A stretch of 61,061 nucleotides of DNA. It comes from Bacteroidales bacterium (GTDB taxonomy: Bacteria > Bacteroidota > Bacteroidia > Bacteroidales > F082). Position numbers and translations under genes: made by a program. The stretch is from assembly GCA_017549605.1 (NCBI GenBank), contig JAFYUH010000137.1, positions 1 to 61,061 of the forward strand, written 5' to 3'. The notes beneath the pieces were generated by a model. It did no database searches, was not told the DNA's origin, and saw only the letters and a program-made list of their open reading frames with translations. This document shows, in pieces, positions 128-43,893 of this stretch (the first letter of the stretch is position 1; every line of letters starts with the position of its first letter).

Positions 128-220
128 GACGCCAAGTCACCAAGTCACCAAGACACCGAGGTTCTTAGTTCAAGGTTCAGAGTTCAAAGTTCAGAGTTCA
201 AAGTTCAAAGTTCAAAGTCC
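128..220. repeat. Adjacent word runs: CACCAAGT-type (128-161) then GTTCA[AG]A heptamers x8 (161-220)
   Basis: Direct reading: 'gacgccaagtcaccaagtcaccaagacaccgagg' followed by 'gttcttagttcaaggttcagagttcaaagttcagagttcaaagttcaaagttcaaagtcc'. Confidence 0.85.
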
Positions 221-1646: not shown

Positions 1647-1742
1647 AAGACACCAAGTCACCAAGTCACCAAGTCACCAAGTCGCCAAGACCCTAAGTTT
1701 TTTTAAACTTGGTGACTCAGAGACTCGGTGTCTTGGTGACTT
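1647..1742 (+). terminator. Long hairpin built from CACCAAGT x4 facing ACTTGGTG-type words, directly after the sdaA stop
   Basis: 'aagacaccaagtcaccaagtcaccaagtcaccaagtcgccaagaccctaag ttttttt aaacttggtgactcagagactcggtgtcttggtgactt'. The arms are largely complementary. Terminator function is inferred from position only. Confidence 0.5.
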
Positions 1743-2318: not shown

Positions 2319-2380
2319 AAATTCAAAATCTCAGAATCTCAGAACTTCAGAACTTTTGAGTTTTTGAATTTTTGAGATTC
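2319..2380. repeat. TCAGAA[TC]C word hairpin between convergent thpR and acyltransferase; overlaps the acyltransferase 3' end
   Basis: 'aaattcaaaatctcagaatctcagaacttcagaacttttgagtttttgaatttttgagattc'. Confidence 0.8.
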
Positions 2381-3560
2381 TATTATTAAGCCAATTTCTA
2401 ACAGGTTCGTCATATAGTTTCAAACAGATGTATGCTAATGTGATATTCGTTGCCATGACGAGCAGTACCATCTGCCATGTTTCGCCGAGAGTGTATAACT
2501 CATTATCGATGAGCCATGAGTAGAAGAGATACATCACTGGATAATGTACTATATATAAAGGATAGGAGATGTCTCCTAAGAACTTGCATAACTTAGTGGT
2601 GAAGCCGTTTGTGATGTTTGCTGCTGCGCCGAACCATATTATCGCTGGAAAGACCAATATGATACACGATAATTCATAAATGCCGTTAAGACTGACGCTG
2701 CCCGTCTTCGTGATATAAGGCATAGAGAAAAGAACGAACATCACGATTACTGAAAGCCAAAAAATAGTTTGGTCGCTTAGCTTAGACCCCGTACTCTGAC
2801 TTAGTGTCTCGGTGTCTCGGCGTCTCGGCGTCTTATTAAAATTCCTCGACATTAGCATTCCGAGGGTGAATGGGAATAGCATCCTCAATAATCCTCCGAA
2901 GAAATTGACAGCGTCTAAGGTCCAGCCGATGCCTATCATATCGTATGTGGAGATGTCGAAGACGACGAAGCTTGTCCATAATAATCCAGTCATCACGACT
3001 AAGAATGCCAATCCTTTGTTGGATAGTTTTCTTATAAACAAAGCGTACAATATATTACCGATATATTCAAAGAAAAGCGACCAGCTCGGTCCGTTGAGAG
3101 GATACATCTCCCCATTGCCGCGTACATCGTAAGACGCTCCTGGATAAGCAGGGATGAGAAACATGGCAAGGAAAAACGCTACAAGAATCCAGTGAAATGG
3201 CATCTGTGTGCCGTCCCATCTTACTCCGCCTTGAAGGAGATATGTCGCCAGTCCGATGACCGCGCCCATCACCACCATAGGCTGCAATCTGACAAGACGA
3301 CGCTTGAAGAAGCTCCAGACGTTGACCGTTGACACTGACTGTTGACACAGACTTGGTGACTTCCATCTGTCATCATAAGCATAGCTGATGACGAATCCCG
3401 ACAGCATGAAGAAGAAGTCGACGCCGAGATGTCCGTGGTTGAAAGTCTCTATCATAGTGCCGCCAGCGAAGGCAAAACCTTCAAAGACGTGATACCATAA
3501 AACCATCAGAGCCGCTACACCGCGCAATCCGTCGAGTAATAAGTAATGCTGCTTCTCCAT
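2331..3560 (-). CDS. Acyltransferase family 3 integral membrane protein
   Basis: 409 aa, multi-pass hydrophobic, with the acyltransferase_3-type N-terminus 'LDGLRGVAALMVLWYHV'. It carries two in-frame word-repeat blocks, and its last codons plus stop lie in the TCAGAATC hairpin. Confidence 0.75.
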   Translation of the reverse strand: MEKQHYLLLDGLRGVAALMVLWYHVFEGFAFAGGTMIETFNHGHLGVDFFFMLSGFVISYAYDDRWKSPSLCQQSVSTVNVWSFFKRRLVRLQPMVVMGAVIGLATYLLQGGVRWDGTQMPFHWILVAFFLAMFLIPAYPGASYDVRGNGEMYPLNGPSWSLFFEYIGNILYALFIRKLSNKGLAFLVVMTGLLWTSFVVFDISTYDMIGIGWTLDAVNFFGGLLRMLFPFTLGMLMSRNFNKTPRRRDTETLSQSTGSKLSDQTIFWLSVIVMFVLFSMPYITKTGSVSLNGIYELSCIILVFPAIIWFGAAANITNGFTTKLCKFLGDISYPLYIVHYPVMYLFYSWLIDNELYTLGETWQMVLLVMATNITLAYICLKLYDEPVRNWLNNRISKIQKLKSSEVLRF

Positions 3561-3574
3561 AAAATTTTATTGTT

Positions 3575-3634
3575 AGAAATTCAAAATCTCAGAACCTCAA
3601 AAGTTTTTTTCTGAGATTCTGAGATTCTGAATTT
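3575..3634 (-). terminator. Hairpin of TCAGAA[TC]C words between S8 paralog A stop and the acyltransferase start
   Basis: 'agaaattcaaaatctcagaacctcaaaag ttttttt ctgagattctgagattctgaattt'. The arms are about 22 nt with 2-3 mismatches. Confidence 0.5.
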
Positions 3635-6600
3635 TTAATAAACAACTTTCACTGTCTTTACACATTCTTTATTTATCAAGCGAACGATATATGTGCCATT
3701 GTCGAAGCAACTCATATCTATTCTATAGTTGTCTTCTGAGACCTCGTTGCTATAGACGATGCGTCCCATTATGTCGATAATCTGAGCAGTGCCGATGGCA
3801 TTGATGATAAGTTCGTTGCCTGATTGATATACGAAATTGTTATTACAGTTTTCGTCAGATAATTTGTCATCTTTTGTAAATCTTACAACAAAACGATTGC
3901 GGATGTCTTGTGATGAAGCTGTGAATGTGTAGTCGTTCAGAAGCATATCGGTCTTTTCACCTGTGATATTGTCGACGAGAGTGATTGTCTCGAACTCGCC
4001 TTCGCTCTCGATGTGAAGTGTGTAGTTGCCCATTTCTTTTGCTTCGAAGTCGACATTGACTTCCTTGGCGTCTTCGTTACAGTTGTAGATTCCGTAATGC
4101 TTGTCGTTGCTTGTGACATAGATGTTAGCGATTGACTTATTGAAGTTATTCAATTTGTTGAAGCCCTCTTGACCTTCGTAGTTCATACATATTATCAGGT
4201 TGTCTTTGCCGCTATTGCTTGAAGCTATGATGTTGATAGAACGTACTGAGTTGTCGCTTCTTTGTTTTGCTACATTATATGTTAATGTAGGCTTGGTGTG
4301 GATGGCTTTTACGAAGAAACCGTCGCCGGCTTTGATAGTGCCGGATGTTGCATATTCATAACCGCCGTCAGCCTTTACGACAGCGTATCCGTCTGCTATA
4401 TCTTCTTTTTGAAGATTGTCCCAATCCATATCGAATGAGAAAGGATTGCCAAGGAGATGGAAGTTGGCGAGGTCCTTGCCTGTTGCGTAAGACAATGTGT
4501 ATTCGTGTGTCTTCTCGTTGTTGAGGATGCCTTTGAATACGGCCTGTGTCTCGCTTTCATAAGATGCCAAATAGCCTTTGCCTTGTTGGAATGTTGTCTT
4601 GAATTGTCCGCCTTTGTGGTTGAGCCATTCGAGTTCGTTGTTGCCTTCATATTTGTATAAGTCGTAGTCTGATGACTCAGGGATGAAGTCTTCTATATTG
4701 GCGTTTTTCACAGGAGATGAGATGAACTGCCATCCGTTGATGTTTTCGATGCTCCATTCGTCAGGGTTGATGATGTTCATTATGAATGTCGCTGCGACAT
4801 CATCGCTGCTTTGGAATACCTGAGCGCCGTCGTTGATGATGAGTCCGTCTGTATTGGCGTTGATGAGATCATTGTTGACAGTGAGTCTGACGCCTTCGTT
4901 AAGTGTAAGCGAACCGTTGTTGATTGTCATTGAATTTACTTCAACCTCTCCGCTTTCTATTGTAGCGTTGGCGTTGATGAGGATAAGGAAATCGTTAGCT
5001 GTAGGCACTTGTTTCTTGCTCCAGTTTTCTGCGTCATTCCAGAGACCGTCTTGTACGAAGGTGTTAGGGTTCTTATAGATCTTTTCAGACCATTCTATTC
5101 TTGATTCTTTGCTGCCGTCACCAGAGATGGCCACTTCGTCAAGACCTGTGCAGAAACCATATCCCGCAACATTTACGAATGCGATGTGGAATTTCTTGCC
5201 GATAAAGTCGCTTAAGTTGATTTCTACCTTTGTCCATTCAGAAACATTGGTTTTGTTGCTTGACCATACCTCTTTCCATCCGTCGTTATGAGCGGTGTTG
5301 CTTACCATGACTTTCAATGTGTTGACGTCAGTACCCCATGCTGGTGTGATATAATGGAATGACAGACTTATGCTGTTTCCGTCATATTGAGTGTAATCCA
5401 TAGGATCGGTTACCAGATATGTCAAATATGTAGGACTGTTGATATAAGACTTGATGAATGCTGCCTTGTTTCCCATAAAAGGAGTAAATATTGTCGGATT
5501 ATTTACTTGACCGGCGGAGAAGCTTTCCTCAATGACCCAGTTATATTTGCCGTTTTCGTTGTAATAGTACCAGTTTGGATTATTCGCATCATAAAGGGTG
5601 CTTGTAGATAAGCTTTCGAAGCCTTCTTCGTAGATTTTGCCTTGTTGTAAGTATAAGTTAGCTACACCATATTGATAAGCGCCGTCTTGCAATGTGTTCC
5701 AGTTGCTGTCGGTATATGTTTCGCCGTTTATGTTGGTAGCTATTTGTGTCTCTTCGCCAGATGTTTCGTTTTTTCTATAGATATTAGAACCTTTGCTGTT
5801 GTTGCCGTTGCTCCAGCTTATTTCTACATCGTTGCCGTTTACGTTTGCAGCCACATTGCTAGGAGCAGGTGTGCTTGAGTTGTCTTCTGTCTGAACGCGT
5901 AATATTTGAGAATATTCTGATTCTAAGTCTCCGCGTTTTGATGTCATGATGTAACTGTATAAAGTGCTATATTCCAATCCTTCGTCTATGTATGAAGTAC
6001 TTTCTGTATTAGCGAGGAATATCTTGTTGCGATAGATGTTGTAGCTTGTGGCGTTGTTGGTTTCATCCCATGTAAGTTTGATGGAATTGCCTGCAACCTG
6101 AGCGCTGATGCTTGGAGGAAGGAGCTCGTTGGAGATGTTTGCTACAATGTCGAAAGTACGTTTATGGCTTCCATTTGTCGCATTGACAGTGAAAGTGACC
6201 TTGTGATTGTCTGGAACTAATTTGTCGATAGTGATGACGAATTTAGCGGCTGCTGTTGCGTTGGCAGCCATTACGCCCATACTTTCGTTTCCGTCGACGA
6301 TAGTGACGTATTTGTCGTTTGTTGTTATAGTGACATTTGTATTTCCTGATGTTGAGCCTTGACCGTTATTGATTAATGTAAGTTCTAAGTTAAGATTTGT
6401 TCCAGGGATGAAATTGTTAGTGAAAGAATAAACGTTGAGGTAAGGATCGCTGGTGTTGAAATCGACGGCTTGTACGGCAGCGAGGGCGTCGATACAGCCA
6501 GAGCCAGTGTTGTTGTTTTTCTTGTCTGAAAGCTTTACTGCTGTTGTCTCGATTATTCTGCATAAGTCAGATGGTGTGAGTTCAGGGTTTTTCTCGAGCA

Positions 6601-8042: not shown

Positions 8043-11000
8043 TTATAATATTACTATTTTTTGTGACCTTACTGTATTCTCGTTAATGTTACGTATTACG
8101 TAAGTTGTCTTGTTGAACTTGCTTACATTGACCCTGTTGTCTTCTCCAACGATGTCAGTGGTGTAAACAACTCTACCCATCATATCAATGATTTGAATTC
8201 TGCCTTCAGCCTTGACGATAAGTTCGTCGCCGCTTTGATATACAAACTGACCGTTGTCTGTTGTCTGTTGTCTGTTGTCCACCTTTACGACAAATCGGTT
8301 GTGGGTGTCATTGCTTGTAGCTGTGAAACTGTATTCGTTTTCGATGAGCATATTTGTTTCAATGCCTGTGAAGCGGTCGACCAATGTGACAGTTTCAAAC
8401 TCGCCGTTTATGTCTAAACTGATGCTGTAATTGCCCATTTGTGATGCTACGAATGAGAGCTCTACTTCAGTAACGTTTTCGTCTAAGTTGGCGATGCCGT
8501 AACGTCTGCCGTTATTGGCAACGAATACTGTAGCAATTCCTTCATTGAAGTTTTGCAACTTATCAAAACCTTCTGATTGTCCTGCGAAGTTGATGATTAC
8601 GTTGTCTTTACCAGCATTGCCAGAAGCGATGACATTTATGCTGTTGAATTGTCTGCCGCTTCTTGTTATCTCTTTTTTATGATCGTAAGAGAATGTTGGT
8701 TCTGCTGTAATGGCTTTCACGAAGAATCCGTCACCTGTTGCTATTGTAGTATCTGCAGGCGCATAGATGTAAGCTCCGTTAGTGCCTATTATAGCATAAC
8801 CTGTTGTCAATCCTTCTACTGTAGCTTTTCTCATATCCATATTGAATGGGAATGGGTTTCCGAGAAGGTGGAAGTTGGCGAGAGGTTTTTCTTCATTGTA
8901 GGATATTTCTGTGAAATTGAAATGATCTTTGCTGTAGAGAGAACCTGTCAGTGAGGCTGTAGATTCTGTTTCGTATGAAGCGAGGTAACCACGTCCGTTT
9001 ACGAAATCTTTTTCAAAGTCGGCGTCTATATTGTTGCCTTTTTTATGGTTGTTCCATTTTGTGTCCTCATATTTGTATAAGTCGTATGATCTGGCGGCTT
9101 CGTTGCCTGTAAAGTTCATAACGCTGGAGGTGTTGAATGGAGAAGCTATGAATTGCCAGCCGTCTTTGTTGCTACCCGACCATGATGTCGGATTTACAAT
9201 ATTCATATTGAATGTTGCAAATACGTTCTCGCTGCTTTGGAACAATTGAGCGCCGTCATTGATGATGAGTGATGCAGCGTCTGTGTTTGTCATTGTGCCG
9301 TTTACAGTGAGACGGACACCGCCATCAATTGTCATAGAACCGCTGTTGATGCTTACAGATTCTACAATGATATCACCGCTCGTTATTGTCACATCACCAT
9401 CGATGATGACATCATCTGTTGCTGTTGGGATAGAGCCTTTGCTCCAGTTGTTTGCATCGCTCCATAAACCGATGCCGGTGAATATATTGATAGAAGGATT
9501 TACGGTGACAGTGAATGAGTGAGGGTAAGTTGTTGTTTCTGTATGAGTTGAAATTGATTTTACATTGTAAATAGTGATGTCGTCAACAGCCAAGGCAGCA
9601 TTGTCACCGCAGTCGAAATGTCTGATGGCAACCCAAATGTTTTGACCCTCATAATCTACCAACATTGAAGATTTCAGAGTCATTTTCAAAGAGTTCGAAT
9701 TTTTAGCAAGAGTCCAGGCATCTACTTGTTTGAAAGAATTTACATCGGTATTACTTGTAGTTGATACGAAAACACCAAATTTTTCCACTGCATATTTGGT
9801 TTGATTTGCCATAGAACATACATGAAATTCAAATGTAGTACCATCTGATGGTATGATCTGTTCTGGCATTACTAACCAACGGTCTGGTGTAAGAGTTTTA
9901 TTGCCTTTATTGCAAAAAGACTCGCTGAATACGAAACCGCCAGTAGAATATGATTTATTATAATCATGACTGCTTTGTGTGCTTGAATGATACCAGTCGT
10001 GGTCATCTGCAGTTATAGTAGTGCAGCCTTGTAAATCATTGTCGAATGTATAGCTTTTATTGGAGACGCTTTCACTTATGACTTCATTTTCTACTATGAT
10101 ATTTATTTCAAAGTCTAAATCGTAGTTAGAAGGAATGTCTTCTGCCAATTTTATGCTAAATGAGACTGTTGTTGTTTCTCCAACTGCAATAGAACCAACA
10201 TTGTATGTGCCGTTAATGATGTTGACATATTCGTTGTCACACACTAAAGTCGCTGTTGTTGCGGCAGGTGTGGCTTTTTCACATTTATTAATTAATGTTG
10301 CAGTCAATGTTGCGTTTCCGTTTACAAGATTATCCAAGTTGAATGATTTTACAATCACACCAGTGAGTTTCTTGTCGGTTGTAGCGCAGGTGTTTTCTGA
10401 TAGTTCAGATTCCCCGACTTCGTTGACGGCTGTTACGTTGAAGCAGTATGTTGTCTCGGCTTCAAGGTTTTCAATGAGATATGTTGTTTCAGTCAGCTCT
10501 ATGTCGAGTGTTTCTGTGCCGCGATAGATATTGTAGCTCAATGCATTTTCAACGGCGTCCCATCTCAAGATTATAGATGATTCACCGTCAGCTGTCGCTG
10601 TCACTACAGGAGTTGCTGGTGCTTTTGGAGCTTCTAATGTTGTAGCGCAGGCGTCTTCAGATTTTTCAGACTCACCGATTTCGTTGACTGCTGTTACGTT
10701 GAAGCAGTATGTCGTTTCGGCTTCAAGGTTTTCTATGATGTATGTTGTTTCAGTCAGCTCTACAGCGAGTGTTTCTGTACCTCGATAGATATTGTAGCTC
10801 AATGCATTTTCAACAGCGTCCCAAGTCAAGACCACTTCTGATTCGCTTGTAGCTTCTGCTGTCGCTACAGGTGCTGTAGGTCTTTCTTTGAATGTTGTAG
10901 CATAAGCTTTTTCTGATTTCTCAGACTCGCCGATTTTGTTGACTGCTGTAATGCTGAAGCAGTATGTTGTCTCGGCTTCAAGATTTTCTACAGTATATGT

Positions 11001-14241: not shown

Positions 14242-17200
14242 TTATTCCTTGACGAAGCGTTTTGTCAAAACTCCATCATTTGTCTTTATCATGATGAAGT
14301 AAACGCCAGCATTAAATTCTGAAACGTCAATTGTTGTGTTTTCTTGGTGACTTGGTGTCTCGGTGACTTGGAGTCTACCATAAACGTCATAAACAACAAC
14401 TTCTTCTATCTCGATTTCTGTATCGATATAAAGTTTGTCGTTTGCAGGATTTGGATAGATACGGAATGATGATGTGTGTTCATCGATTGCGTCGTCAACA
14501 ACAGTGACGGTATATACTTCTGATGGTTCAGATTCTGTTTCGTCATTGAATGCAACTACATAGAATTCAAATGTGATTTCTTCATTTGTTCCTATCACGT
14601 ATGCTGTGCCGTTTGTGTACCCCATGTGGAAATCTTGTGCGTTGTCGGTGTTTACATAAACATCGTAACCTGTTGCGCCTTCAACGGCATCCCATGCCAT
14701 TGTGATTTCGAATTTGTATCCATAACCAGGAACGTCTTGTCTGATAGCTGCTCTTAAGTTTTTAGGAGCTTCGAGTTTTGCAGGTTCTGGATTTTCAGCC
14801 TCGAATGTTGTAGCGCAAGCGTCTTCTGATTTGTCAGATTTACCTTCTTTATTGACTGCAACGACGTTGAAACAATATTGTGTGTTTGCTTCCAAATCGC
14901 TGACGGTGTATGTTGTTGCTGTTACGGCCAACTTAACTGTTTCTTCACCGCTATAGATGTTGTATCTTATTGCGTTTTCAACAGCTTCCCATGTCAATAC
15001 TATTGTTGATTCGCTTGTTGCTTCTGCTGTTACTACAGGTGCTGCCAATGTTGGTACTTCTGGCTCTATTGGTTCATCGCCTGTATCTTCTAATGTTGTA
15101 GCGCAAGCGCTTTCTGACTTGTCAGACTCGCCGAGTTTGTTGACGGCTGTCACGCTGAAGCAGTATTCTGTCTCGGCATTAAGACCGTTTACGGTGTACA
15201 TTGTGCTTGTGAGTTCTGATGCAATCAGTTCAGTGCCTTGATATACATTGTAGCTTGCAGCTTCTTCAACATAATCCCATGCTAAAAATATAGAAGATTC
15301 GTTCACAGCTTCTGCTGTTAAGTTGGTTGGAGTTGCAGCTTCTGTTGGTTCTAATGTTGTTGCACATGCTTCGTCACAGAATCCTGATTCGCCAGAACTA
15401 GTGATGGTTGTGACTGCATAGCAATATTGTGTTTCATAAGCAAGCTTGCTGTCGGTGAAAGAAGGTTCTGTTACAGTAGCGACTTTCTGTCCGTTGCGAT
15501 ATACGTTGTAGCTGTTAGCAGTGTTTACAGCATTCCATTCCAAAGAAATCTTTGAACTGCTTATTGCTGTTGCTGTGAGGTTTTCAACTTTAGGCAATAC
15601 TATTGAGTTGCTTGCTTTCACTGTGAAATAATAAGGGTCATCGTAACTGTAAGTTGAAGTGTGCTGTATATTCATGCTGACATTTGAGAAAGTGATGTCA
15701 TCAATGTTTAAAGCATCATAGTCATATCCATAATATGAGTCTTCCCATTCTTGTGCTGTAAAGAAGTGACGTATAGCGATATATATATCTTGACCTGCGT
15801 ATGCGCTTAAATCAGCAGTGTATTGTGTCCAGGTTGTTTTTTCGCTTATTACCCATTCTTGGATTGTAGTAAAGTCACTTGCAGAAGCATTGCCATTTGT
15901 TGACACAGCAAGTCCGAAATGTTCTTTATATCCAATATTGTTGTTACCTCTTGCATAGAAACTGACTTTACTGTTTCCTGTAATTTTAACTTTTTCAGGA
16001 GAGACGAGATAGTTGTCGATAGGATTGTATACTTGTGCGACACCATTTTGATTTGAAATACTCATAAGGTGACCTTTTCCTGAGAAAGACTCTTTTACAT
16101 TTGTTAGAGTAGTTGCATCGGTGCTGTGTAGCCAAGCCACTTTGGTGAAACTTCCCCCAGCTTTGAAGCTAGTCCAGCCTTCCATATCGTTTTCGAATTC
16201 ATAAACATAACTTGTTGGGTTAGTATATTCTGAATGTGTTTCAAGGAAGAAGTCGAAGCTATAACTTGGTTTAGTTTCAGGTAATTTTGTTTCAATAGTG
16301 AATGTTCCTGTTCCAGTTTCGCCTACGCCTAATGCAGGTATTGTTGTCTCTGCATCAATAAAATCTACATATTTTAAGTCGCCAGTAAGCGTCTTGAGGC
16401 TGAGTGTGATAGGAGAAGTGAATGCTGCTGTTCCATTGTTGATCACAGTGACTTTTATGTCGTTTGTTGCATTAGTTTCTACCACTCCAGGGCTCACAGA
16501 TTGGAAAGCCAAGTTTGGCATTGTTGTGATATTGACAGAGAATGTGTTTTCCCATGAAAAATTGCCGCTTTTTGTTGTGACAGTAAATGTTACAGTGTGA
16601 CCGCTTGGTGTGTCATTAGAGACATTGATGTTGAAGAATAATGATTTAGTGTCGCCAGCTCCGATTCTGCCTGCTGTCTGTGTTGGATTAGCGATTGTTA
16701 CGTATGGGTCGTTTGCCAATGCCAATGTCACTGTTGTGTTTTCATCACTTGGACCATTACCTTCATTTTTTAATGTTATGCCGATAGTATTGCTACCTGT
16801 TGATATTGTTGTTGGAGCAAATGTGTTAAGTTTAACGTAAGGATTGCCAACGACTTCGGTGATGCTGTTTACTGCTGCGAGAGCGTTGACGATACCAGCG
16901 CCGACGGTGTTGTTTTTTGTAGATGGTTTTGAAGTTGCTGTTGTTTCAATAATTTCTGAAATCTGAGCTGGAGTGAGTGTTGAGTTCTTTTCCAACATAA
17001 GGGCTATCACACCAGCAACTATAGGTGTTGCTTGTGATGTTCCGCTTTTCAATTCGTATATCTCATTGTTGTTATATTTTGTAGAACGTATAATATAACC
17101 TGGAGCTGAGATGTCAGGGCGGATGAGACCCATTGACTCTCCGTTGTTGTAAGGATAGTCATTGTAAGAAGTTCCTTCCCATGTTGAAGGACCGCGTGAT

Positions 17201-18360
17201 GACTCGTTGAGGTCATGAGCGCCGACGCAGATGACGCTTGACAAACCGCCTTCGAGTGTCTGGTCAGGGTTTCTCCAAGGAGCAGGGCAAGCTGCTGGGT
17301 AGTCGACATTGTCAGGAGCTCCGTATGAGTCGCCGTCGTTACCTGCTGCTGCACAGACGACAACGCCTGCACTTAACACATTGTCGAAAGCCTTGCGTAT
17401 CTCTTCTTTCTGTGCTGTGGTTAACTGGCTGTTCTTGAAACCTAAAGACATGCTTAAAACGTCAGCACCGTTTTCAACAGCGAACTGGACGCCGCTCAAC
17501 ATTTGAGTTACAGAACCGCCACCAGCACGGTTGATAGTCTTTAATGTCATAAGCAATGCATCTGGAGCGATACCTGTTGTAATCATTGAAGTACCATCGC
17601 CACAGACAATACCAGCGCAGTGTGTGCCATGGCCATAGTCGTCAGTGATGTTACTGTTGTTAGCAACATAGTTCCAACCGTTTACGTATGTATCAGGAGT
17701 ACCATCGTTATTGGTATCTACATATCCTGTCCAGAGATGATCTCTAAGGTCTAAGTGGTTGATGTTGGTGCCAGAGTCCAATACTGCAACGATTACGTTC
17801 TTGCCAGTATAACCTTCTTCCCACCAAACTCTTTGCGCTTCGACAGCTTGGACGTGAGCATCAGGACCGCCAGCTCTTACTGGAGTGGCTGGCTGTGCCT
17901 TGAGGCTTTCCTCCATTTGCTTAGGAGAGATCATCTGGATTTCTTTGTCATAGCCGATGATCTTTACATCAGGATGTGATGAGAGTCTGTAGATTACATC
18001 TTTAGAAGCCTTGCAGCTGATGCTGTTGGCAATCCATAGATTACGGATGTCTGCAACATTGCCGCTTAACTCTTCTGCTTTCAAGATATTCATCACGTCA
18101 GCTTGAACGTTTTCTGAATAAGTCTTGAGTTCGCCGATAACGATCTCTTTCTTTTCAGATTTTGTTTGAGCCTTTCTTGATGCTCGATTGAGTCTGTCAG
18201 AATTGATGTTTGACTTGAAATAAATCTGAATGTCGATCAATTCATCGTTTCTTTGATTTAAGATGTTCTGAAGTTCAGGTTCGATGGCATTGATGTTTTG
18301 AGCAAATGTCAAAGTGCTTAAAACCAATGCTAAAAATAAAATGATGTAATTCTTTTTCAT
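14242..18360 (-). CDS. Subtilisin-like S8 serine peptidase with FN3 repeats and T9SS sorting domain (paralog C)
   Basis: 1372 aa. The N-terminal ~640 aa are very similar to paralog B, and a compared catalytic-domain stretch is about 95% identical at the nucleotide level. The triad is intact. The C-terminal domain reads 'FRIYPNPANDKLYIDTE...GVYFIMIKT...RFVKE'. Confidence 0.88.
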   Translation of the reverse strand: MKKNYIILFLALVLSTLTFAQNINAIEPELQNILNQRNDELIDIQIYFKSNINSDRLNRASRKAQTKSEKKEIVIGELKTYSENVQADVMNILKAEELSGNVADIRNLWIANSISCKASKDVIYRLSSHPDVKIIGYDKEIQMISPKQMEESLKAQPATPVRAGGPDAHVQAVEAQRVWWEEGYTGKNVIVAVLDSGTNINHLDLRDHLWTGYVDTNNDGTPDTYVNGWNYVANNSNITDDYGHGTHCAGIVCGDGTSMITTGIAPDALLMTLKTINRAGGGSVTQMLSGVQFAVENGADVLSMSLGFKNSQLTTAQKEEIRKAFDNVLSAGVVVCAAAGNDGDSYGAPDNVDYPAACPAPWRNPDQTLEGGLSSVICVGAHDLNESSRGPSTWEGTSYNDYPYNNGESMGLIRPDISAPGYIIRSTKYNNNEIYELKSGTSQATPIVAGVIALMLEKNSTLTPAQISEIIETTATSKPSTKNNTVGAGIVNALAAVNSITEVVGNPYVKLNTFAPTTISTGSNTIGITLKNEGNGPSDENTTVTLALANDPYVTIANPTQTAGRIGAGDTKSLFFNINVSNDTPSGHTVTFTVTTKSGNFSWENTFSVNITTMPNLAFQSVSPGVVETNATNDIKVTVINNGTAAFTSPITLSLKTLTGDLKYVDFIDAETTIPALGVGETGTGTFTIETKLPETKPSYSFDFFLETHSEYTNPTSYVYEFENDMEGWTSFKAGGSFTKVAWLHSTDATTLTNVKESFSGKGHLMSISNQNGVAQVYNPIDNYLVSPEKVKITGNSKVSFYARGNNNIGYKEHFGLAVSTNGNASASDFTTIQEWVISEKTTWTQYTADLSAYAGQDIYIAIRHFFTAQEWEDSYYGYDYDALNIDDITFSNVSMNIQHTSTYSYDDPYYFTVKASNSIVLPKVENLTATAISSSKISLEWNAVNTANSYNVYRNGQKVATVTEPSFTDSKLAYETQYCYAVTTITSSGESGFCDEACATTLEPTEAATPTNLTAEAVNESSIFLAWDYVEEAASYNVYQGTELIASELTSTMYTVNGLNAETEYCFSVTAVNKLGESDKSESACATTLEDTGDEPIEPEVPTLAAPVVTAEATSESTIVLTWEAVENAIRYNIYSGEETVKLAVTATTYTVSDLEANTQYCFNVVAVNKEGKSDKSEDACATTFEAENPEPAKLEAPKNLRAAIRQDVPGYGYKFEITMAWDAVEGATGYDVYVNTDNAQDFHMGYTNGTAYVIGTNEEITFEFYVVAFNDETESEPSEVYTVTVVDDAIDEHTSSFRIYPNPANDKLYIDTEIEIEEVVVYDVYGRLQVTETPSHQENTTIDVSEFNAGVYFIMIKTNDGVLTKRFVKE

Positions 18361-21532: not shown

Positions 21533-23554
21533 TCAAAGTTCTTTAACAAATCTCTTTACAATATTTCCGTTTGCAGTATTTATCTTAACGAAATAAACTC
21601 CGCTATTCAGATTAGAAATATCTATTGATATCATTTCTTGGTGACTTGGTGACTCGGTGACTTGGTGTCTTCCGTAAATATCATAAACTATCACTTCCTC
21701 GATTTCGCTTTCAGTCTTGATGTATAATCTGTCTTTAACCGGATTTGGATATATGCAGAAGTCTTTGTCGTTTTCTGTCAATGATGTACCGTTCTGTAAT
21801 GTGAATGTATGTCTCCAGCTAGGATGTCTTGAGAAATTGCTGATGCTGATATCATCGATGCATAAGATGAAGATGTCGGTACTGTTGAAGTGACGTATTG
21901 CTAACCAGATGTTTTGACCTACGTATTCGCTGAGGTCGACGGAGAAATATGTCCATTCTTCACCGAGACGATTGTCGGATGTCAGCGTCCATTCTTCTAT
22001 GGTGGTGAAGTCGTCGGCGGAGGTGCTGCTTTTTGTTGAAACGGCTACTCCGAAGTGTTCGCCTGGGACGGTCTTGTCTTGCATCGCTGCCCAGAACCCG
22101 AATGTCGTTTCTTCCTTGACATGTATCATAAAAGGAGAGACGATGTAGTCGTTAGGCATAAGTTCCGACAATATGATATTGCAGAACGACTCGCTCATGA
22201 GGTGTCCTTTGCCTGAGTGCGATGGTATCATTGTGACGAAATGGCCGTCTGATTCAGATGTGTGATACCATAAATGATCGTCGTTGTTAGCGTTTATGGT
22301 AGTCCAGCCTTCGAAGTCATTGTTGAAACTATAACTGATGTCGATGTTTTCTTCGAATGTCTCGTTGGCATAGATGTCGATGTTGAATGTCGCGATATGT
22401 CCTTCAGGCATAGAAGCATCGGTGGTGAAAGAGAATGAGTGTGTGACTTTCTCATTGCAAGCCATCGGCTCTAACAGATATTCGCCTTGTGTTATTGTGA
22501 CGAATTCATCGTCTGTCGACAAAATCGCTTTTGCCTGATATGATGATTCTTTCAAGCCATTATTGACAAATGTGACATCGAGATTCATCTCTTTGCCTGC
22601 AGCGAAGTCTTCGTGAGAGATGGCTTCAACGACTATGTTTTCCTGTGGGTTGTTGCCTTTTAATGAGAACTCGTTGTTCCATTTCATCGGCTGCATCACT
22701 CCTGTCAGCTCGACATCATCGACAGCGAGGAAGTATTGGTCGAAGCAATCGAAATGGCGTAATGCCATCCACACTTCCTGTCCTTCATATTCGCTTAAGT
22801 CGACGGTGTATTGATACCATGTTCCTTGGTCTCTGCTGCTTTTGGCTGTCAATGTCCATTCTTTTATTGTGGTGAAGTCATCGGCGGAGGTGTTGCCTGT
22901 CGATGATATTGCAAGACCGAAATGTTCTGCTGGATATTCGCGATCTTGAGCGCATGCCCAGAAACTGAAGGTTGCGTCTTTGCCTAATTTGAACTTCTCA
23001 GGTGTGACGAGATAGTTGTCAGGATATAAGATATCGAAGGTGTTGTCGTACGATTGAGAGAACATACAGTACATACTTTCGCGGCCGTGGCCTACTCCCA
23101 ATCTTTTTCCCGACTCGATCCAGTTGAATCCGTCGCCGTCAGCATCGATGGTTGTCTATCCTTGGATGCCGTCTTCGAAGTCGTAATAAAGATATGACTC
23201 TATGCTGCTGTCTTCAAGAACAGATTCTATGCTGAAGCTGATGTCGCTGTCGTGTGGTAACAGCTCGTTTGCTGTGATGACGAAGACAACTTCCTGTGTC
23301 GCATTAGGAGCCAATGGTTTGCAGATGGCTTCAGCATTGACGATGGTGATATATTTGCTGTCGCATTTCAATGTGACATGAGTGTCGTTTTCTGTCGCGA
23401 CCTCGCCATCGTTTATGAGTGTGACCTTTAGTTCAATATTCTTGCCCGGTGCTAAATTAGCATTCTCGCATGAATGAAAAGATATCTTAGGAAGCTGAGC
23501 GAAACCCAACTGTAAGAAAAGAGAGAATAAAAGTGTAAGTAATGTTTTTTTCAT
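21533..23554 (-). pseudogene. T9SS-sorted protein with two cleaved-adhesin/choice-of-anchor-J-like modules, interrupted by one in-frame TAG
   Basis: ORFs 23156..23554 (signal peptide 'MKKTLLTLLFSLFLQLGFAQ') and 21533..23101 are in the same frame (23158-23101=57). They are separated only by TAG at 23156..23158. The read-through is '...FEDGIQG*TTIDADGDGFNW...', and the second module of the same protein has 'FEGWTTINAN', so the stop replaces a conserved Trp. Confidence 0.8.
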
Positions 23555-23638: not shown

Positions 23639-25375
23639 TTATTCTTTAACAAACCTCTTTACAATATTTCCGTTTGCAGTATTTATCTTAACGAAATAAA
23701 CCCCGCTATTCAAATTAGAAATATCTATTGATATCATTTCTTGGTGACTTGGTGTCTCGGTGACTTGGTGTCTTCCGTAAATATCATAAACTATCACTTC
23801 CTCGATTTCGCTTTCAGTCTCGATGTATAATCTGTCTTTAACTGGATTTGGATATATGCTGACATTATTTGTGAACTTGTCTTCTATGCCAGTGATATCT
23901 TTATAGTCTTCTATTTCTTCTAAGGCTAACATTGCGTTGACGCATCCTGATCCTGTCTCGTTGCTTTTTGTCTCAGACAGTTTTGTTGCTGTTGTCTCGA
24001 GAGCTTCGCATATCTGTGCAGGAGTGAGGTATGGCTTCTTTTGTAACATGAGGCATACTACGCCAGTGACGCATGGTGTTGCCTGTGATGTGCCGTCCAT
24101 GCTGATGTATCCGCTGCTGTTGGTGTTGCTGCAAGATATGATTCCGACGCCAGGGGCGCATACGTCAGGACGTATGAGGCCTATCTCTCTTCCAGGTAGA
24201 TAAGGATAGTCTTCGTATGATGATGTCTGCCATGTGAAAGGTCCTCTTGATGAGAAATCGGCGACAACGTTATAATAGTTGACCGCGCTGACCGCGATGC
24301 ATGCTGAGAGTCCGCCAGGGTTTGCTTGTTGGTCAGGGTGGAGCCATGGAGGAGGACAGCCGCCTGGTACTCTAACGCTGTTAGGCACAGGGAATGTGAG
24401 GTTGAGCATGCCGTCGTTGCCTACTGCTGTCATGATGGCGACATTAGCTTCGAGGGCGTTTTCGTATGTCTGACGTAATGCTTCTCTTGTTGACATTGAG
24501 GCGTTAGGGAATCCTAATGACATATTCAATACGTCGGCGCCATGTTCTATAGCGAACTCGATTCCGGAGCATACGGTGTTGGCGTTTCCGCCGCCAGCGT
24601 CGTCCATAACTTTGATGCACATTACAGTTGCGTCAGGAGCTATTCCTGTCTGTGTTCCAGAGGTGCCGTCGCCGCAGATGATGCCAGCGCAGTGAGTGCC
24701 GTGGTTGAAGCCGTCGTGAACGTCATGGCTGTTCTCGAAAGTGTTGTAGCCGTGGTTAGGATATTCCTCGCCGCCGTCCCAAAGGTTTTTCTCCAAGTCT
24801 TTGTGGAAGTTGACGCCCGTGTCTATCACGCCGACGAGAACGCCTTTGCCAGTGTAACCTTCGTTCCATGCTTTATTGGCATTCACGTGCTTGATGTTTT
24901 GTGTCATGCCTCTTTGAGCCTCGACTTCTCTCGCTTTTTCATTCCATAAGAGAAACTGTGTCTCGTTGTAACCTATTATCTTGATATCATAATGTTCTGA
25001 CAACAAATAGATGTAGTCTTTGCTTGCAGTACATGTTATCATATTTGAAAGCCAGTGAGCTGTGATGTCTTTGACGTCGCCGCTTGCTTCGCCGGCTTTT
25101 AACAAAGACAAGATGTCTTTCTGTGATTGCTCAGAGAAATTTTTGAGTTCACTTACAACAACTTGACGTTGTGCCTTGGCGTCTTCTGTACTTTGTATGT
25201 TTTTTCTTAAATGGCTTATGTTAGCTTCTGATTTAAGAATGATGTTGACGCTGATCATGTCGTTGCTTTTTGAGTCAAGAACATTTTGAAGTTCAGGCTC
25301 GATGACGTTGTAGTTCTGCGCAAAGCCTATCTGGCATGCAAGTAATGATAGTAATAATAATAGGTGTCTTCTCAT
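23639..25375 (-). CDS. Subtilisin-like S8 serine peptidase with T9SS sorting domain (paralog E, minimal architecture)
   Basis: 578 aa. It has a signal peptide, an I9-like propeptide, triad motifs 'VGVIDTGV', 'HGTHCAG' and 'GTSQATP', and then directly the C-terminal domain 'SIYPNPVKDRLYIETE...GVYFVKINT...RFVKE'. Confidence 0.88.
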   Translation of the reverse strand: MRRHLLLLLSLLACQIGFAQNYNVIEPELQNVLDSKSNDMISVNIILKSEANISHLRKNIQSTEDAKAQRQVVVSELKNFSEQSQKDILSLLKAGEASGDVKDITAHWLSNMITCTASKDYIYLLSEHYDIKIIGYNETQFLLWNEKAREVEAQRGMTQNIKHVNANKAWNEGYTGKGVLVGVIDTGVNFHKDLEKNLWDGGEEYPNHGYNTFENSHDVHDGFNHGTHCAGIICGDGTSGTQTGIAPDATVMCIKVMDDAGGGNANTVCSGIEFAIEHGADVLNMSLGFPNASMSTREALRQTYENALEANVAIMTAVGNDGMLNLTFPVPNSVRVPGGCPPPWLHPDQQANPGGLSACIAVSAVNYYNVVADFSSRGPFTWQTSSYEDYPYLPGREIGLIRPDVCAPGVGIISCSNTNSSGYISMDGTSQATPCVTGVVCLMLQKKPYLTPAQICEALETTATKLSETKSNETGSGCVNAMLALEEIEDYKDITGIEDKFTNNVSIYPNPVKDRLYIETESEIEEVIVYDIYGRHQVTETPSHQEMISIDISNLNSGVYFVKINTANGNIVKRFVKE

Positions 25376-36135: not shown

Positions 36136-36143
36136 TTTTTTTT

Positions 36144-36211
36144 AATTCATAATTCACAATTCACAATGCATAATCAGTAAAATTATGAATTATGCATTAT
36201 GAATTATGCAT
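36144..36211. repeat. Hairpin of AATTCA[TC]A words facing TATGAAT/TATGCAT heptamers x4
   Basis: 'aattcataattcacaattcacaatgcataat cagtaaa attatgaattatgcattatgaattatgcatt'. Confidence 0.8.
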
Positions 36212-36214
36212 TGT

Positions 36215-37204
36215 TTATATAAATCTTCTTTCAACTAAGTCGTTTAATTTCTTATAAGCTTCAGAGGTGCAATCCCATTGGAATTCAATCTGAAGCTCGC
36301 TCATATAAGTCTTGGCTCCCAATAAAGTGGAGAAGCTGTTCAATGATCTTATGGACTTGTTATATTTCTCCATGCTTCCGCCAAACAATTCATTGAGGAA
36401 TAAGAACTTGTCGTTGATGCCTATTGCTGTTATCAAGTCTGACACAGGCTTGCGTTGCAGACGAGCGGCGAGACTCTTGTCCTCGCTTTGTTCCAGCATG
36501 TCGCCAAGTGTTGGGATATTCTCTCTTATTATACGATAAGCCCTGATGCCAGAGTCCTCTTCTTTTTCAGAAACTTCCTTTTTGGAATCAACGGCAGTAT
36601 CGCTTAATGAATCAGTGATGGGATCTTCTTCTTCTTCTTCAGTATCAGAAACTTCATCTTCTTCAAAGTCCTCAACTCCTAACTCCTCACTCCTCACTCC
36701 TAACTCTTCAGACGCCACAGGAGTGACGTCTCTACATTCTTCAATTCCTAATTCCTCACTCCTAACTCCTAACTCCTCAGATGCCACAGGAGTGACGTCT
36801 CTACGTTCTTCAATTCCTAACTCTTCTTTGGTGAAATCCCAAACCATATCAGCTTCCTCATCGCTTTCCTCTTCATTTCCAAAGTCAATGAGTTCATTGT
36901 CATCATTATCTTCATCTTCAAACTCCTCAACTCCTAACACCTCATTCCTAACTCCTAATTCTTCAGACGCCACAGGAGTGACGTCTCTACGTTCTTCAAT
37001 TCCTAACTCCTCATTCCTAACTCCTAATTCAATGGAACAAATCGTGTCGTATAATTTTCTTGTATTTTCCATCAATAAATCGACATCAAGTTGATTCATC
37101 GGCATCTCTTTTCTAATCAGAAAATTAACCTGATTAGACATCTTGTTTAGCAATGTTTCTATTTCAAAAATTATACGGTCTTGCTGATTATTTCGTTGTT
37201 CCAT
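36215..37204 (-). CDS. Hypothetical acidic protein carrying three in-frame palindromic-element copies
   Basis: 329-aa ORF with ordinary-looking N- and C-terminal parts. The central third consists of 'EELGIEE(R/C)RDVTPVASEELGVR(N/S)E' x3, encoded by the same DNA as the intergenic element at 29461..29511. No family was recognised. Confidence 0.55.
   Translation of the reverse strand: MEQRNNQQDRIIFEIETLLNKMSNQVNFLIRKEMPMNQLDVDLLMENTRKLYDTICSIELGVRNEELGIEERRDVTPVASEELGVRNEVLGVEEFEDEDNDDNELIDFGNEEESDEEADMVWDFTKEELGIEERRDVTPVASEELGVRSEELGIEECRDVTPVASEELGVRSEELGVEDFEEDEVSDTEEEEEDPITDSLSDTAVDSKKEVSEKEEDSGIRAYRIIRENIPTLGDMLEQSEDKSLAARLQRKPVSDLITAIGINDKFLFLNELFGGSMEKYNKSIRSLNSFSTLLGAKTYMSELQIEFQWDCTSEAYKKLNDLVERRFI
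36670..37030. repeat. Three in-CDS copies of [CCTAACT]n + 'agacgccacaggagtgacgtctctac' + TTCCTAA words
   Basis: The cores lie at 36710..36735, 36779..36804 (one substitution, 'agatgcc') and 36965..36990. Confidence 0.85.
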
Positions 37205-37301: not shown

Positions 37302-38741
37302 ATGAAAAGAAGCAGAAAATTATTGGCAGTGGTATCGATATTATTGATGTCATTTGCATTGCAAGCTCAAGACAGTATTCAGAATAATGATAACGGAAAG
37401 AAGAAAGAGAAGGTTTATAACGAGAAGGGCGAGCTTATCAAAAAAGGCTGGAACTTCGGTCCTCTTCCTGTCGTTGGTTTCAATTCTGACCTCGGTTTCC
37501 AATATGGTGCCTGCGTCGACATCTTCAACTACGGCGACGGTTCTCGCTATCCAAAATTCGATTATAAAATGAACCTCGAGGCTTCAGCCTACACAAAAGG
37601 TTCTCTCAACTTACGTTTCTATGGTGATTTCTATAACCTTATGCCAAACTCTCGTCTCTTCGTTGACGCTGGTTATTTCACCGACAAACGTTTTGAATTC
37701 TACGGCTTCAACGGATTTGCTTCGCCTTATTATGATGACATTTACGTTTTAGGTCAACAGACAACAGACAACGGTCAACAGTTGATTGAAAATTTTGATC
37801 CTAATTTCAACAGCGTGTTCTACAGAATGGATCGTAAACAATTCAGATTCAACTCATGTTTGCGCAATAAATTCGGTTTCGGAGAGCATTTCTATTATGG
37901 CGTAGGTCTCAGTTATTTCAACTATAACATGGGAAGAATCAATATTCACAACGAAGAATATCTTTATGACGAACAAATTACATTGTTTGAATTATATCGC
38001 GAAAGCGGTCTAATCAGAGCTAACGAAGCTGACGGTGGTAATGTCACTCAATTGAAACTTGCTTTCATCTACGATTCCAAAAACCACGACAGCGACCCAA
38101 CCAAAGGTGCTTACTTTGAAGCAACAGTGACAGCAGCTCCTGATTTTATCGACCGTGAAGGTTACAATCACATGACTTTCAATGCTGTATGGCAACATTA
38201 TATTCCAATCGTAAAGGAAAACCTTACATTCGCTTATCGTCTCGTTACTCAAAATGTTATCGCTGGCGACATCCCTTATTACGCTATGTTTAACTCAAAT
38301 ATGTTGTTCTATAAAAAGATGTCTACCGACGCTATGGGCGGTGCAAACTCAGTACGTGGCATCAACAGAAACAGAGTCATCGGCGCTGGTTACGCTTGGC
38401 TTAACGCAGAGCTCCGCTGGAAAGTGGCTGGTTTCCAATTCATCAACCAAAACTGGAACGTCGCTCTTAACCCATTCTTCGATGCAGGTATGGTGACACA
38501 AAGTTATCGCCTTGAAGAACAAGAAAAGGCTTGGTCAGAAATAGAAAAACAATATGACATTATAGGTAACAATAACCTCATCATCGACAGCTACACTAAG
38601 GGCATTCACACTTCTGCTGGTTGCGGCTTGAAACTCATCATGAATAAGAATTTCATCATCTCTGCTGAAGCAGCAAAGGCTCTCGACGCAAGAGACGGCG
38701 ACAACTTGAAGGTTTATATAGGATTTAATTACCTCTTCTAA
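37302..38741 (+). CDS. Outer-membrane beta-barrel protein (Omp85/surface-antigen-like)
   Basis: 479 aa with a signal peptide, an alternating beta-strand pattern and a C-terminal '...YIGFNYLF' aromatic terminus. The family assignment is tentative. Confidence 0.55.
   Translation: MKRSRKLLAVVSILLMSFALQAQDSIQNNDNGKKKEKVYNEKGELIKKGWNFGPLPVVGFNSDLGFQYGACVDIFNYGDGSRYPKFDYKMNLEASAYTKGSLNLRFYGDFYNLMPNSRLFVDAGYFTDKRFEFYGFNGFASPYYDDIYVLGQQTTDNGQQLIENFDPNFNSVFYRMDRKQFRFNSCLRNKFGFGEHFYYGVGLSYFNYNMGRINIHNEEYLYDEQITLFELYRESGLIRANEADGGNVTQLKLAFIYDSKNHDSDPTKGAYFEATVTAAPDFIDREGYNHMTFNAVWQHYIPIVKENLTFAYRLVTQNVIAGDIPYYAMFNSNMLFYKKMSTDAMGGANSVRGINRNRVIGAGYAWLNAELRWKVAGFQFINQNWNVALNPFFDAGMVTQSYRLEEQEKAWSEIEKQYDIIGNNNLIIDSYTKGIHTSAGCGLKLIMNKNFIISAEAAKALDARDGDNLKVYIGFNYLF
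37753..37781 (+). repeat. CAACAGA/CAACGGT heptamer words inside the OMP CDS
   Basis: 'gtcaacagacaacagacaacggtcaacag' encodes 'GQQTTDNGQQ'. Confidence 0.85.
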
Positions 38742-39923: not shown

Positions 39924-39926
39924 AAA

Positions 39927-40009
39927 ACTTTGAACCTTGAACTCTGAGCCCTGAACTTTGAACTAAGAACTTAAGGCTCAATGCTCAAAGCTCAAAGCTC
40001 AAGGTTCTC
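39927..40009. repeat. Hairpin of TTGAAC/CTGAGC words facing GCTCAA[AG] words after ansB
   Basis: 'ctttgaaccttgaactctgagccctgaactttgaactaagaacttaaggctcaatgctcaaagctcaaagctcaaggttctc'. Confidence 0.75.
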
Positions 40010-43836: not shown

Positions 43837-43893
43837 GAATGAGAAATGAATATTCTCTCTAAAACTCCTAACTCCTAATTCCTAACTCCTAAT
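43817..43893. repeat. Hairpin of TTAGGAAT/GAGGAAT words facing CTCCTAA[CT]T words; the left arm encodes the last codons of CDS 42694..43836
   Basis: 'aattaggaatgaggaattaggaatgagaaatgaatattctctctaaaactcctaactcctaattcctaactcctaatt'. Confidence 0.8.

Follow-up and report, generated by a model that had tools for sequence, protein, structure and literature searches.

The window analysed here, i.e., the whole 61,061-nucleotide (nt) stretch of contig JAFYUH010000137.1, comes from a Limimorpha-like Bacteroidales lineage and encodes several S8 protease paralogs and other proteins that carry type IX secretion system (T9SS) type-A sorting domains. Paralog C, the product of open reading frame (ORF) 14242..18360, is an S8 subtilase of 1372 amino acids (aa) with fn3, Cleaved_Adhesin and Por_Secre_tail domains, and its sorting domain, from YPNP to the stop codon, occupies 14242..14457 on the minus strand. 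Within this domain, 100 nt 5' of the stop codon, lies an octamer array (14343..14376, minus strand) which reads AGACTCCA AGTCACCG AGACACCA AGTCACCA AG and encodes (R)LQVTETPSHQE (RLQVTETPSHQE). Near-identical DNA is found on the minus strand at 21637..21671 (HQVTESPSHQE), in the sorting domain (21533..21751, minus strand) of a nonsense-interrupted paralog, and at 23740..23774 (HQVTETPSHQE), in the sorting domain (23639..23854, minus strand) of S8 protease paralog E. Comparison with related strains shows that the block belongs to a large set of interchangeable arrays which occupy one fixed site of the sorting domain and are replaced at strain level, and the pattern spans Limimorpha-like Bacteroidales of the rumen and hindgut.

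Each of the three blocks comprises four in-frame octamer units of the AGACACCA/AGTCACCG type. Tandem Repeats Finder (TRF) reports them at period 8 (3.6-4.4 copies, 80-88% matches) and also at period 16 (2.2 copies), and the block is best described as a short tandem DNA repeat in which a 16-nt unit is present 2.2 times, i.e., as four 8-nt units. The window arrays are imperfect, with AGACACCA and AGTCACCG units alternating and no long perfect tract. All three domains match PF18962 (Por_Secre_tail) well above its curated cut-off of 27 bits (54.4 bits in paralog C, 60.8 in the interrupted paralog and 59.0 in paralog E), with matches ending 1-3 residues before the stop. Coordinates, translations, TRF and PF18962 all agree with an earlier note on this DNA, which had placed octamer words in frame within three T9SS sorting domains. 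Ordinary sequence had also been described at this position in the domains of paralogs A, B and F and of the M6 and M1 proteins. This holds for all five, i.e., for paralog F, the M6-like and the M1 proteins and likewise for the weaker A and B tails (ILIYSTEEDVNT being an example of an ordinary segment, in contrast to the array), but paralog B carries a CAACAGA-type heptamer array in frame directly 5' of its sorting domain (8247-8279, minus strand; DNRQQTTDNGQ). The supposed pseudogene is interrupted by one in-frame TAG at 23156-23158 (minus strand), where the orthologue at the syntenic locus of a close relative (L001) has TGG (GIQG*TTIDADGDGF vs MQGWTSIDADGDGF), and it is otherwise colinear with that intact 669-aa orthologue.

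The words of these blocks recur throughout the window. CACCAAGT occurs 12 times against 1.74 expected, a count reached in none of 100 shuffles, and the 16-mer CACCAAGTCACCAAGT is found 20 times with up to three mismatches, against 0.44 expected. The same word family forms an intergenic array at 128..162 (plus strand; GACGCCAAGTCACCAAGTCACCAAGACACCGAGGT; TRF and word search) and a hairpin after sdaA. The left arm of this hairpin (1647..1690, plus strand) holds four copies of CACCAAGT and variant units, and its right arm (1705..1742, plus strand) holds ACTTGGTG-type units, to which both the left arm and the coding arrays are complementary; TRF also finds period-8 arrays at intergenic 132-157, 1647-1689 and 1707-1742. 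Without gaps, the coding blocks match the left arm at 31/34 positions (paralog C), 34/35 (interrupted paralog) and 33/35 (paralog E), i.e., with 91-97% identity, which bears out the proposal that they belong to the word family of the 1647-1742 hairpin. Since the three coding copies are paralogous they were counted as a single event, but even a single 33-nt match as good as this lies far beyond chance. As for the description of this structure as the sdaA terminator, the hairpin is indeed strong (-45.2 kcal/mol, z -7.0), but its role as a terminator is unproven; an intrinsic (Rho-independent) terminator was rejected because there is no 3' U-tract (tail GGUGACUUAAAAUUUG) and a terminator scan did not flag the site.

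It is the DNA that is periodic, and the peptide merely follows from it. Lag-8 periodicity reaches 0.71-0.82 in the window blocks, compared with 0.37-0.41 (standard deviation 0.08-0.10) in synonymous recodings, of which 20000 per window peptide were drawn with the codon usage of the clade. The observed value was equalled by at most one of the 20000 recodings of each peptide, and for paralog C all 20000 were less periodic. Between genomes, the HQVTET block uses the same codon at 96% of identical residues vs 59% in the flanks; from codon usage by itself, 46% would be predicted. On the evidence of the recodings and of codon identity, peptide-level conservation was rejected as the cause.

With the 74-aa domain as query, a protein search yielded 39 relatives, almost all of them metagenomic, which between conserved YGR and IDVS hold either HQVTETPSHQG or very different, oddly repetitive peptides. 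We compared 77 genome loci (Candidatus Limimorpha, Bacteroidales metagenome-assembled genomes (MAGs) and Lentimicrobiaceae, with Flavobacteriaceae as outgroups) and 80 metagenome loci, from which 160 and further sorting domains, respectively, were parsed. Aligning these domains, as the earlier note had proposed, mapped the word families to one site. In the YGR...IDVS subfamily this site is always occupied by a 7- or 8-nt array, and at least nine word families are represented, so occupation of this site is not peculiar to CACCAAGT. The words and their peptides are ACACCAAG (HQVTETPSHQG), GAAACTCA / GAATCTCA (VQNLRNSETQKLRNS), GCAACTCA (IQNLSNSATQQLSNS), AGACTACA (LQDYKTTRLQG), AGACAACA (QQDNKTTRQQG), CAGCTGT (RQQLSAVSCQPSV) and CAACAGT (QQSTVNGQQS); GTCAACAA and CTACAGT also occupy the site, and other metagenome contigs have additional words there. 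Periodicity of at least 0.75 was found in 70/226 blocks vs 4/226 control windows upstream in the same domains, and the Flavobacteriaceae sorting domains have ordinary sequence. Several families include perfect four-unit tracts, e.g., of GAAACTCA and of AGACTACA. Within each family the length and codon phase of the arrays are constant across many species and the synonymous sites are frozen; no in-frame length variants of three units more or less were found among the parsed genome and metagenome domains.

The HQVTETPSHQ block itself is kept in its sorting-domain subfamily across at least seven species-level genomes as well as metagenome contigs. A conserved VTETPSHQE block in genomes free of intergenic hairpins had been named as the pattern that would speak against a link between the two. 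The conservation is there, but the hairpin-free part was not found, since the block-bearing clade has intergenic CACCAAGT-family arrays (L024, L026, L050, L054, L058 and the window), and block and intergenic arrays stand within one genome in three cases (window, JBGVQR and JAZOSK).

Strain comparisons show that the array at this site is swapped as a cassette between strains and between paralogs. At L001, LeuS is 97% identical to that of the window, the body of paralog E is about 90% identical and its sorting domain 40-61%, and four copies of AGACTACA stand in place of the CACCAAGT block. The 14 alleles of window paralog C, clustered at 90% identity or more, hold four different arrays: the CACCAAGT type (six alleles, window included), the CAACGGA/CAACAGA heptamer (three), the GAATCTCA octamer (one) and the CAACAGC heptamer (four). 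Two of these alleles were fetched with their upstream flank (L164 and L165) and have leuS upstream, as in the window. Their protein bodies are 98.8% identical, and their DNA agrees at 16/45 positions inside the block, compared with 260/264 upstream of it and 82/86 downstream, the replaced segment spanning GGAAGA to RTTGATGT. Further pairs likewise have different arrays between near-identical flanks, and the cassette boundaries fall at the array edges, with GGNAGA on one side and RTTGAY on the other. The site holds 10-12 ordinary residues in array-free relatives vs 12-15 in array-bearing ones, and alleles differ by replacement. When every domain was paired with the one closest to it in flank sequence, the two had the same array family in 32-39% of cases vs 15% by chance; this test and the paralog C alleles rule out that the array families are simple monophyletic sorting-domain lineages. 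Across sorting domains, blocks of one family share the order of their unit variants and the first unit, from which we infer that the donors are other sorting domains.

Further repeats were observed in and around these domains. The L001 orthologue of window paralog F (9957-10168) has an HQVAETPRHQG block where the window copy is ordinary, and in its strand 1-2 loop a GACACAGA-type repeat (IET*TQIQT) contains an in-frame TAG. This loop holds a second in-frame hexamer/dodecamer array (GACTCAGACACT, TQTLTQT) in L001, L003, L046, L085, L120 and others, with length differences of 6, 12 or 24 nt between near-identical sorting domains; the window domains are without it. At the array site of a metagenome contig (L137, Ga0082212_10126799) a perfect 28-nt palindrome, GTAGAGACGTTGCGCGCAACGTCTCTAC, encodes VETLRATSLQ in frame and resembles the GC-rich intergenic hairpins.

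Whole units are both gained and lost by the arrays. Two of the 258 sorting domains for which both halves were found are out of frame, each with three AGACTACA-type units instead of four. Both genes with this 8-nt loss are otherwise intact (643 aa, with signal peptides), and a stop follows 0-5 codons after the array, with loss of strands 4-7; beyond these first two, no frameshifted sorting domains were found in the 80 metagenome loci. For the window blocks, working by hand from the sequence, a change of -8 or +8 nt would bring a stop within about 1-8 codons. The natural alleles show that loss of a unit at the array truncates the sorting domain and, although they belong to a sister word family, they bear out the earlier suggestion that 8-nt slippage shifts the frame.

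The array-bearing domain is predicted to keep the usual fold. AlphaFold modelled the paralog E domain (pLDDT, i.e., predicted local distance difference test, 86.6) as a beta-sandwich with six strands of at least three residues (10-14, 19-26, 31-35, 42-46, 53-61 and 64-72) plus a short first strand, and Foldseek matched the model to 8gl6_D, the RemA sorting domain (template modelling (TM) score 0.79), and also to 8gl8_D, 8qb1_A and 5ag8_A. The block had been thought to lie between two beta-strands. In the model it corresponds to H31-E41, of which TPSHQE does form the predicted strand 3-4 loop, but HQVTE is placed on strand 3 itself. The surface by which sorting domains touch the translocon is poorly conserved save for one Lys, according to the study of the 8gl6/8gl8 structures (PMC10994853), which fits tolerance of arbitrary sequence at the block.

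Such arrays crowd the clade's intergenic DNA, in many cases as inverted pairs able to form hairpins. The ingroup loci contain 512 period-7 and 237 period-8 arrays in 935 kb, and the outgroup loci 28 and 32 in 360 kb. Intergenic DNA has 4.35 arrays per kb, DNA that encodes sorting domains 2.81 per kb and the remaining coding DNA 0.088 per kb, although the loci were gathered with an array-bearing query, which inflates the count of sorting-domain arrays. The median density of other 7/8-nt arrays is 0.48 per kb in loci with a periodic sorting-domain block vs 0.025 in those without. Coding and intergenic arrays have 10 octamers (0.24 expected, p = 5e-15) and 19 heptamers (2.0 expected) in common, and the shuffles together with this word overlap exclude chance resemblance. 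Words free of stops in any frame make up 174/185 coding arrays vs 239/371 intergenic arrays; that coding arrays are nearly all stop-free explains why only the CACCAAGT orientation, and never ACTTGGTG, is found in genes. Among the few permissive coding sites for the shared words, the sorting-domain site is by far the commonest, and it can take up only words whose coding strand is free of stops in every frame.

Most intergenic regions of the window hold paired 7/8-nt arrays as long hairpins (291-363, 2319-2371, 3562-3649, 36143-36212, 39926-40002, 43817-43892 and others). The hairpin at 291-363 (-39.4 kcal/mol) has many G-U wobble pairs, with a U-run after it, and this suggests that selection acts on the RNA. 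In the JAZOSA loci L046 and L032, the intergenic regions between tandem T9SS cargo genes carry GACTGTTGACTGTTGTCTGTTGTCCGTTGACTT just before the next ATG, i.e., the CAACAGT array of the sorting domain encoded ahead of it in reverse-complement form.

Other genes carry similar arrays in frame. An acyltransferase (2331..3560, minus strand) has the same word family in a loop at 2796..2834 (AGACGCCG AGACGCCG AGACACCG AGACACTA, encoding KTPRRRDTETLSQ) and a single CACCAAGT unit at 3351..3358, both on the minus strand. Exactly at 3351-3358, an orthologue of about 97% nucleotide identity (L161) has three extra CACCGAGA units, adding 24 nt in frame, and in another orthologue (L162) a GCCAAAG heptamer array replaces the octamer array at 2796-2834 (site 2). 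Alleles of about 97% nucleotide identity also differ by a 16-nt deletion in the repeat-encoded C-terminal tail. This PF01757 protein is highly conserved apart from three hypervariable sites, i.e., after YDDRWK, after RNFN and in the C-terminal tail, which in 34 orthologues (377-471 aa) are empty or hold 7/8-nt arrays. Some of these sites hold apparently palindrome-encoded peptides (RDVTPVAS, VPEPVEGK..RFDKLSD), and the window tail, ISKIQKLKSSEVLRF, is encoded by the 2319-2371 hairpin. A 329-aa ORF (36215-37204, minus strand) contains three in-frame intergenic-type modules with arrays at 36669-37030, each made up of a GAGTTAG heptamer array, a palindrome rich in GC (AGACGTCACTCCTGTGGCGTCT) and another array, which together encode EELGVRNEELGIEERRDVTPVAS repeats in an acidic linker; its apparent counterparts in L033, L038 and L049, of similar length and with an array at a similar position, have other arrays. 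At 37752-37781 (plus strand) a CAACAGA-type heptamer array encodes QQTTDNGQQ in frame in a signal-peptide protein with a beta-barrel-like C-terminus.

On balance we consider it probable that the blocks are repeat DNA which a discarded secretion signal tolerates, which short-patch recombination exchanges and which is liable to frameshift, and any selected function of the arrays is unproven. Slippage and template switching would generate and homogenise the arrays, and short-patch gene conversion among the many paralogous sorting domains would exchange them, with breaks or stalls at the repeat as a possible trigger. The segment may be tolerated since the domain is recognised largely independently of its sequence and is presumably removed by cleavage once export is complete. 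One unit more or less should abolish export, as the stop that follows within a few codons would remove strands 4-7, and this proneness to frameshift would be a side effect instead of an evolved switch.

Several points weigh against this account. No donor copy was identified for any swap. Replacement of the array alone between near-identical flanks is hard to achieve by ordinary RecA-type conversion, the fully conserved flank being about 12 nt, and in the single-copy acyltransferase gene different array families replace each other, which conversion between paralogs cannot explain. The six window-type paralog C alleles have identical arrays with no variation in length. The fixed length and phase within families and the frozen synonymous sites would be just as compatible with selection for a function of the DNA or the RNA. 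Finally, every sequence used is a consensus from a MAG or a metagenome assembly.

The alternative that survives best is a contingency (phase-variation) switch, in which arrays are kept since one-unit slips reversibly toggle export of individual cargo proteins, with swaps adding diversity between strains. A unit length that is not a multiple of three, the early stops expected from an 8-nt change in the window blocks, the two natural alleles with an 8-nt loss in otherwise intact signal-peptide genes, the perfect tracts in several families (GAAACTCA and AGACTACA, four units each), array lengths that differ between close strains and the frozen synonymous sites are all as such a switch would have them. 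However, just two of 258 domains are out of frame and both belong to one word family, the window arrays, with 80-88% matches, fall short of perfect repeats and do not differ among six alleles, the tracts comprise just 4-6 units, and similar arrays sit where no switch is at work, i.e., in the acyltransferase loops and the acidic linker. We therefore regard the switch as unlikely, though still to be reckoned with. A broader proposal is that 7-/8-nt arrays are interchangeable cassettes that a specific recombination or template-switching process puts in place and swaps at defined sites, producing at the sorting signal both hypervariation between strains and, by one-unit slips, heritable ON/OFF control over the export of individual cargo proteins. 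This too we hold to be doubtful; if true, it would be a contingency system that acts on secretion instead of expression.

A role for the arrays as RNA is very improbable. Under this explanation coding arrays would pair with complementary intergenic arrays, in cis (downstream untranslated region) or in trans (RNAs from hairpin arms), and so control the stability or translation of T9SS cargo mRNAs. The predicted duplexes of the window arrays with the right arm at 1705-1742 are strong (-42 to -48 kcal/mol vs -15.6 +/- 3.4 for shuffled arrays), as are those of the JAZOSA tandem paralogs (L046, L032) with the complementary array before the next ATG (-45 to -54 kcal/mol); G-U pairs in the intergenic hairpins point to RNA-level structure, and the frozen synonymous sites of the block fit. 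Yet complementarity of arrays to their own 200 nt downstream is not general (Mann-Whitney p = 0.095) and is strong solely in the JAZOSA tandem paralogs, so general pairing in cis was rejected, and none of the three window genes has a complementary array nearby. Local mRNA structure was also rejected, as the array lies outside stable stems in the folded mRNA segments, and no known RNA family in Rfam matched the window. Moreover, alleles of one gene swap unrelated words, which would break any specific pairing.

It is highly unlikely that the blocks are a recent local insertion, in which a mobile intergenic hairpin element, similar to MITEs (miniature inverted-repeat transposable elements) or Rickettsia palindromic elements (RPEs), entered one sorting domain here and was copied to two paralogs. 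The 91-97% identity of the blocks to the hairpin arm would suit such an origin, as would the intergenic-type modules, GC-rich palindromes included, that other proteins contain in frame and that in one case (L137) occupy the sorting-domain site. However, at least seven species-level genomes have the same block, with phase and flanks unchanged, and a single arm is present without its inverted partner, with no stable local hairpin that involves the array. The array also replaces sequence instead of adding it in comparison with array-free relatives (10 residues in L026 vs 13 in L040). We give almost no credence to VTETPSHQ as a functional sorting-domain motif under peptide selection that resembles the hairpin only incidentally or by chance. 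In its favour is the 93% amino-acid identity of the block across several genomes, vs 58% in the flanks, a figure inflated because the family was defined by the block-peptide pattern; against it, the same site is filled by many unrelated peptides, each set by a different 7-/8-nt word, codon choice follows the repeat and chance is excluded.

Arbitrary nucleotide repeats can write one entire strand and the adjoining loop of the T9SS sorting domain, and rewrite them from strain to strain, without loss of the fold in the model, which bears on how far the translocon recognises the domain independently of its sequence. Alleles of the same gene with different cassettes, together with the frameshifted alleles, are a natural set for probing what the signal requires. 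The observations reveal an abundant rumen and hindgut Bacteroidales lineage with short tandem repeats across intergenic and coding DNA and strain-level turnover, and they make testable how dispersed repeat families such as the short tandemly repeated repetitive (STRR) sequences arise and propagate. On a practical level, such sites will break assemblies, mislead gene callers and yield apparent pseudogenes among secreted proteases.

Several known systems are comparable in part. The CTCTT repeats of Neisseria opa genes lie in the region that encodes the leader peptide, i.e., a cleaved secretion signal, and form a slipped-strand contingency locus. Such loci are treated in general terms in PMC11475388 and PMC3315296. 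The arrays described here are similar in that a unit that is not a multiple of three sits in the coding part of a secretion signal, unit changes switch the product off and natural alleles lack one unit; they differ in that the signal is C-terminal, the tracts are short and often imperfect, and OFF alleles are rare (2/258). RPEs are in-frame selfish repeats in protein genes, palindromic, about 100-150 bp long and inserted once; they are referred to in PMC1779305 and PMC10969869. Here, likewise, repeats of a non-coding type lie in frame at permissive positions of unrelated proteins (sorting domain, acyltransferase loops, outer-membrane-protein loop and acidic linker) without destroying them, but the sorting-domain block is a single-arm tandem array of 32-48 nt which replaces sequence, leaves no duplicated target and changes hands as a cassette. 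The domain that hosts it is a typical T9SS type-A sorting domain (PF18962/TIGR04183; 8gl6, 8gl8, 8qb1, 5ag8) in its motifs (PNP, GxY, C-terminal K) as well as in profile score, position and predicted fold. Unlike in other such domains, strand 3 and the strand 3-4 loop are in this clade encoded by interchangeable nucleotide repeats; we found no description of this, and a search of the literature for T9SS sorting-domain repeats and for repeats of Limimorpha gave nothing relevant.

The closest parallels are among short tandem repeats themselves. STRR and TAACTGA repeats resemble the present arrays in that heptamer families are scattered among numerous intergenic loci within a lineage, with stop codons limiting their coding orientation. 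Those described here belong to a different phylum, comprise many more word families and also octamers, form inverted-pair hairpins and occupy a protein-domain site systematically. The CAACAGT word found here matches a cyanobacterial STRR word. TAACTGA repeats are known from Beggiatoaceae, Cyanobacteria and some Bacteroidetes (PMC4679880). Prokaryotic long simple sequence repeats have units of 5-11 nt, heptamers predominating, according to a passage in PMC4679880 that cites Mrazek et al. 2007, and the evolutionary pressures on coding repeats are treated in PMC3315296. The repeats of these studies (PMC4679880, PMC3315296) share with ours the head-to-tail 7-8 nt arrays, which are lineage-specific, mostly intergenic and indel hot spots, and which in coding DNA are tolerated mainly near protein termini. 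In contrast, the words described here are common to inverted intergenic hairpins and one fixed secretion-signal site, units that are not multiples of three stay in frame at fixed length, and arrays of unrelated words replace each other at one site between strains.

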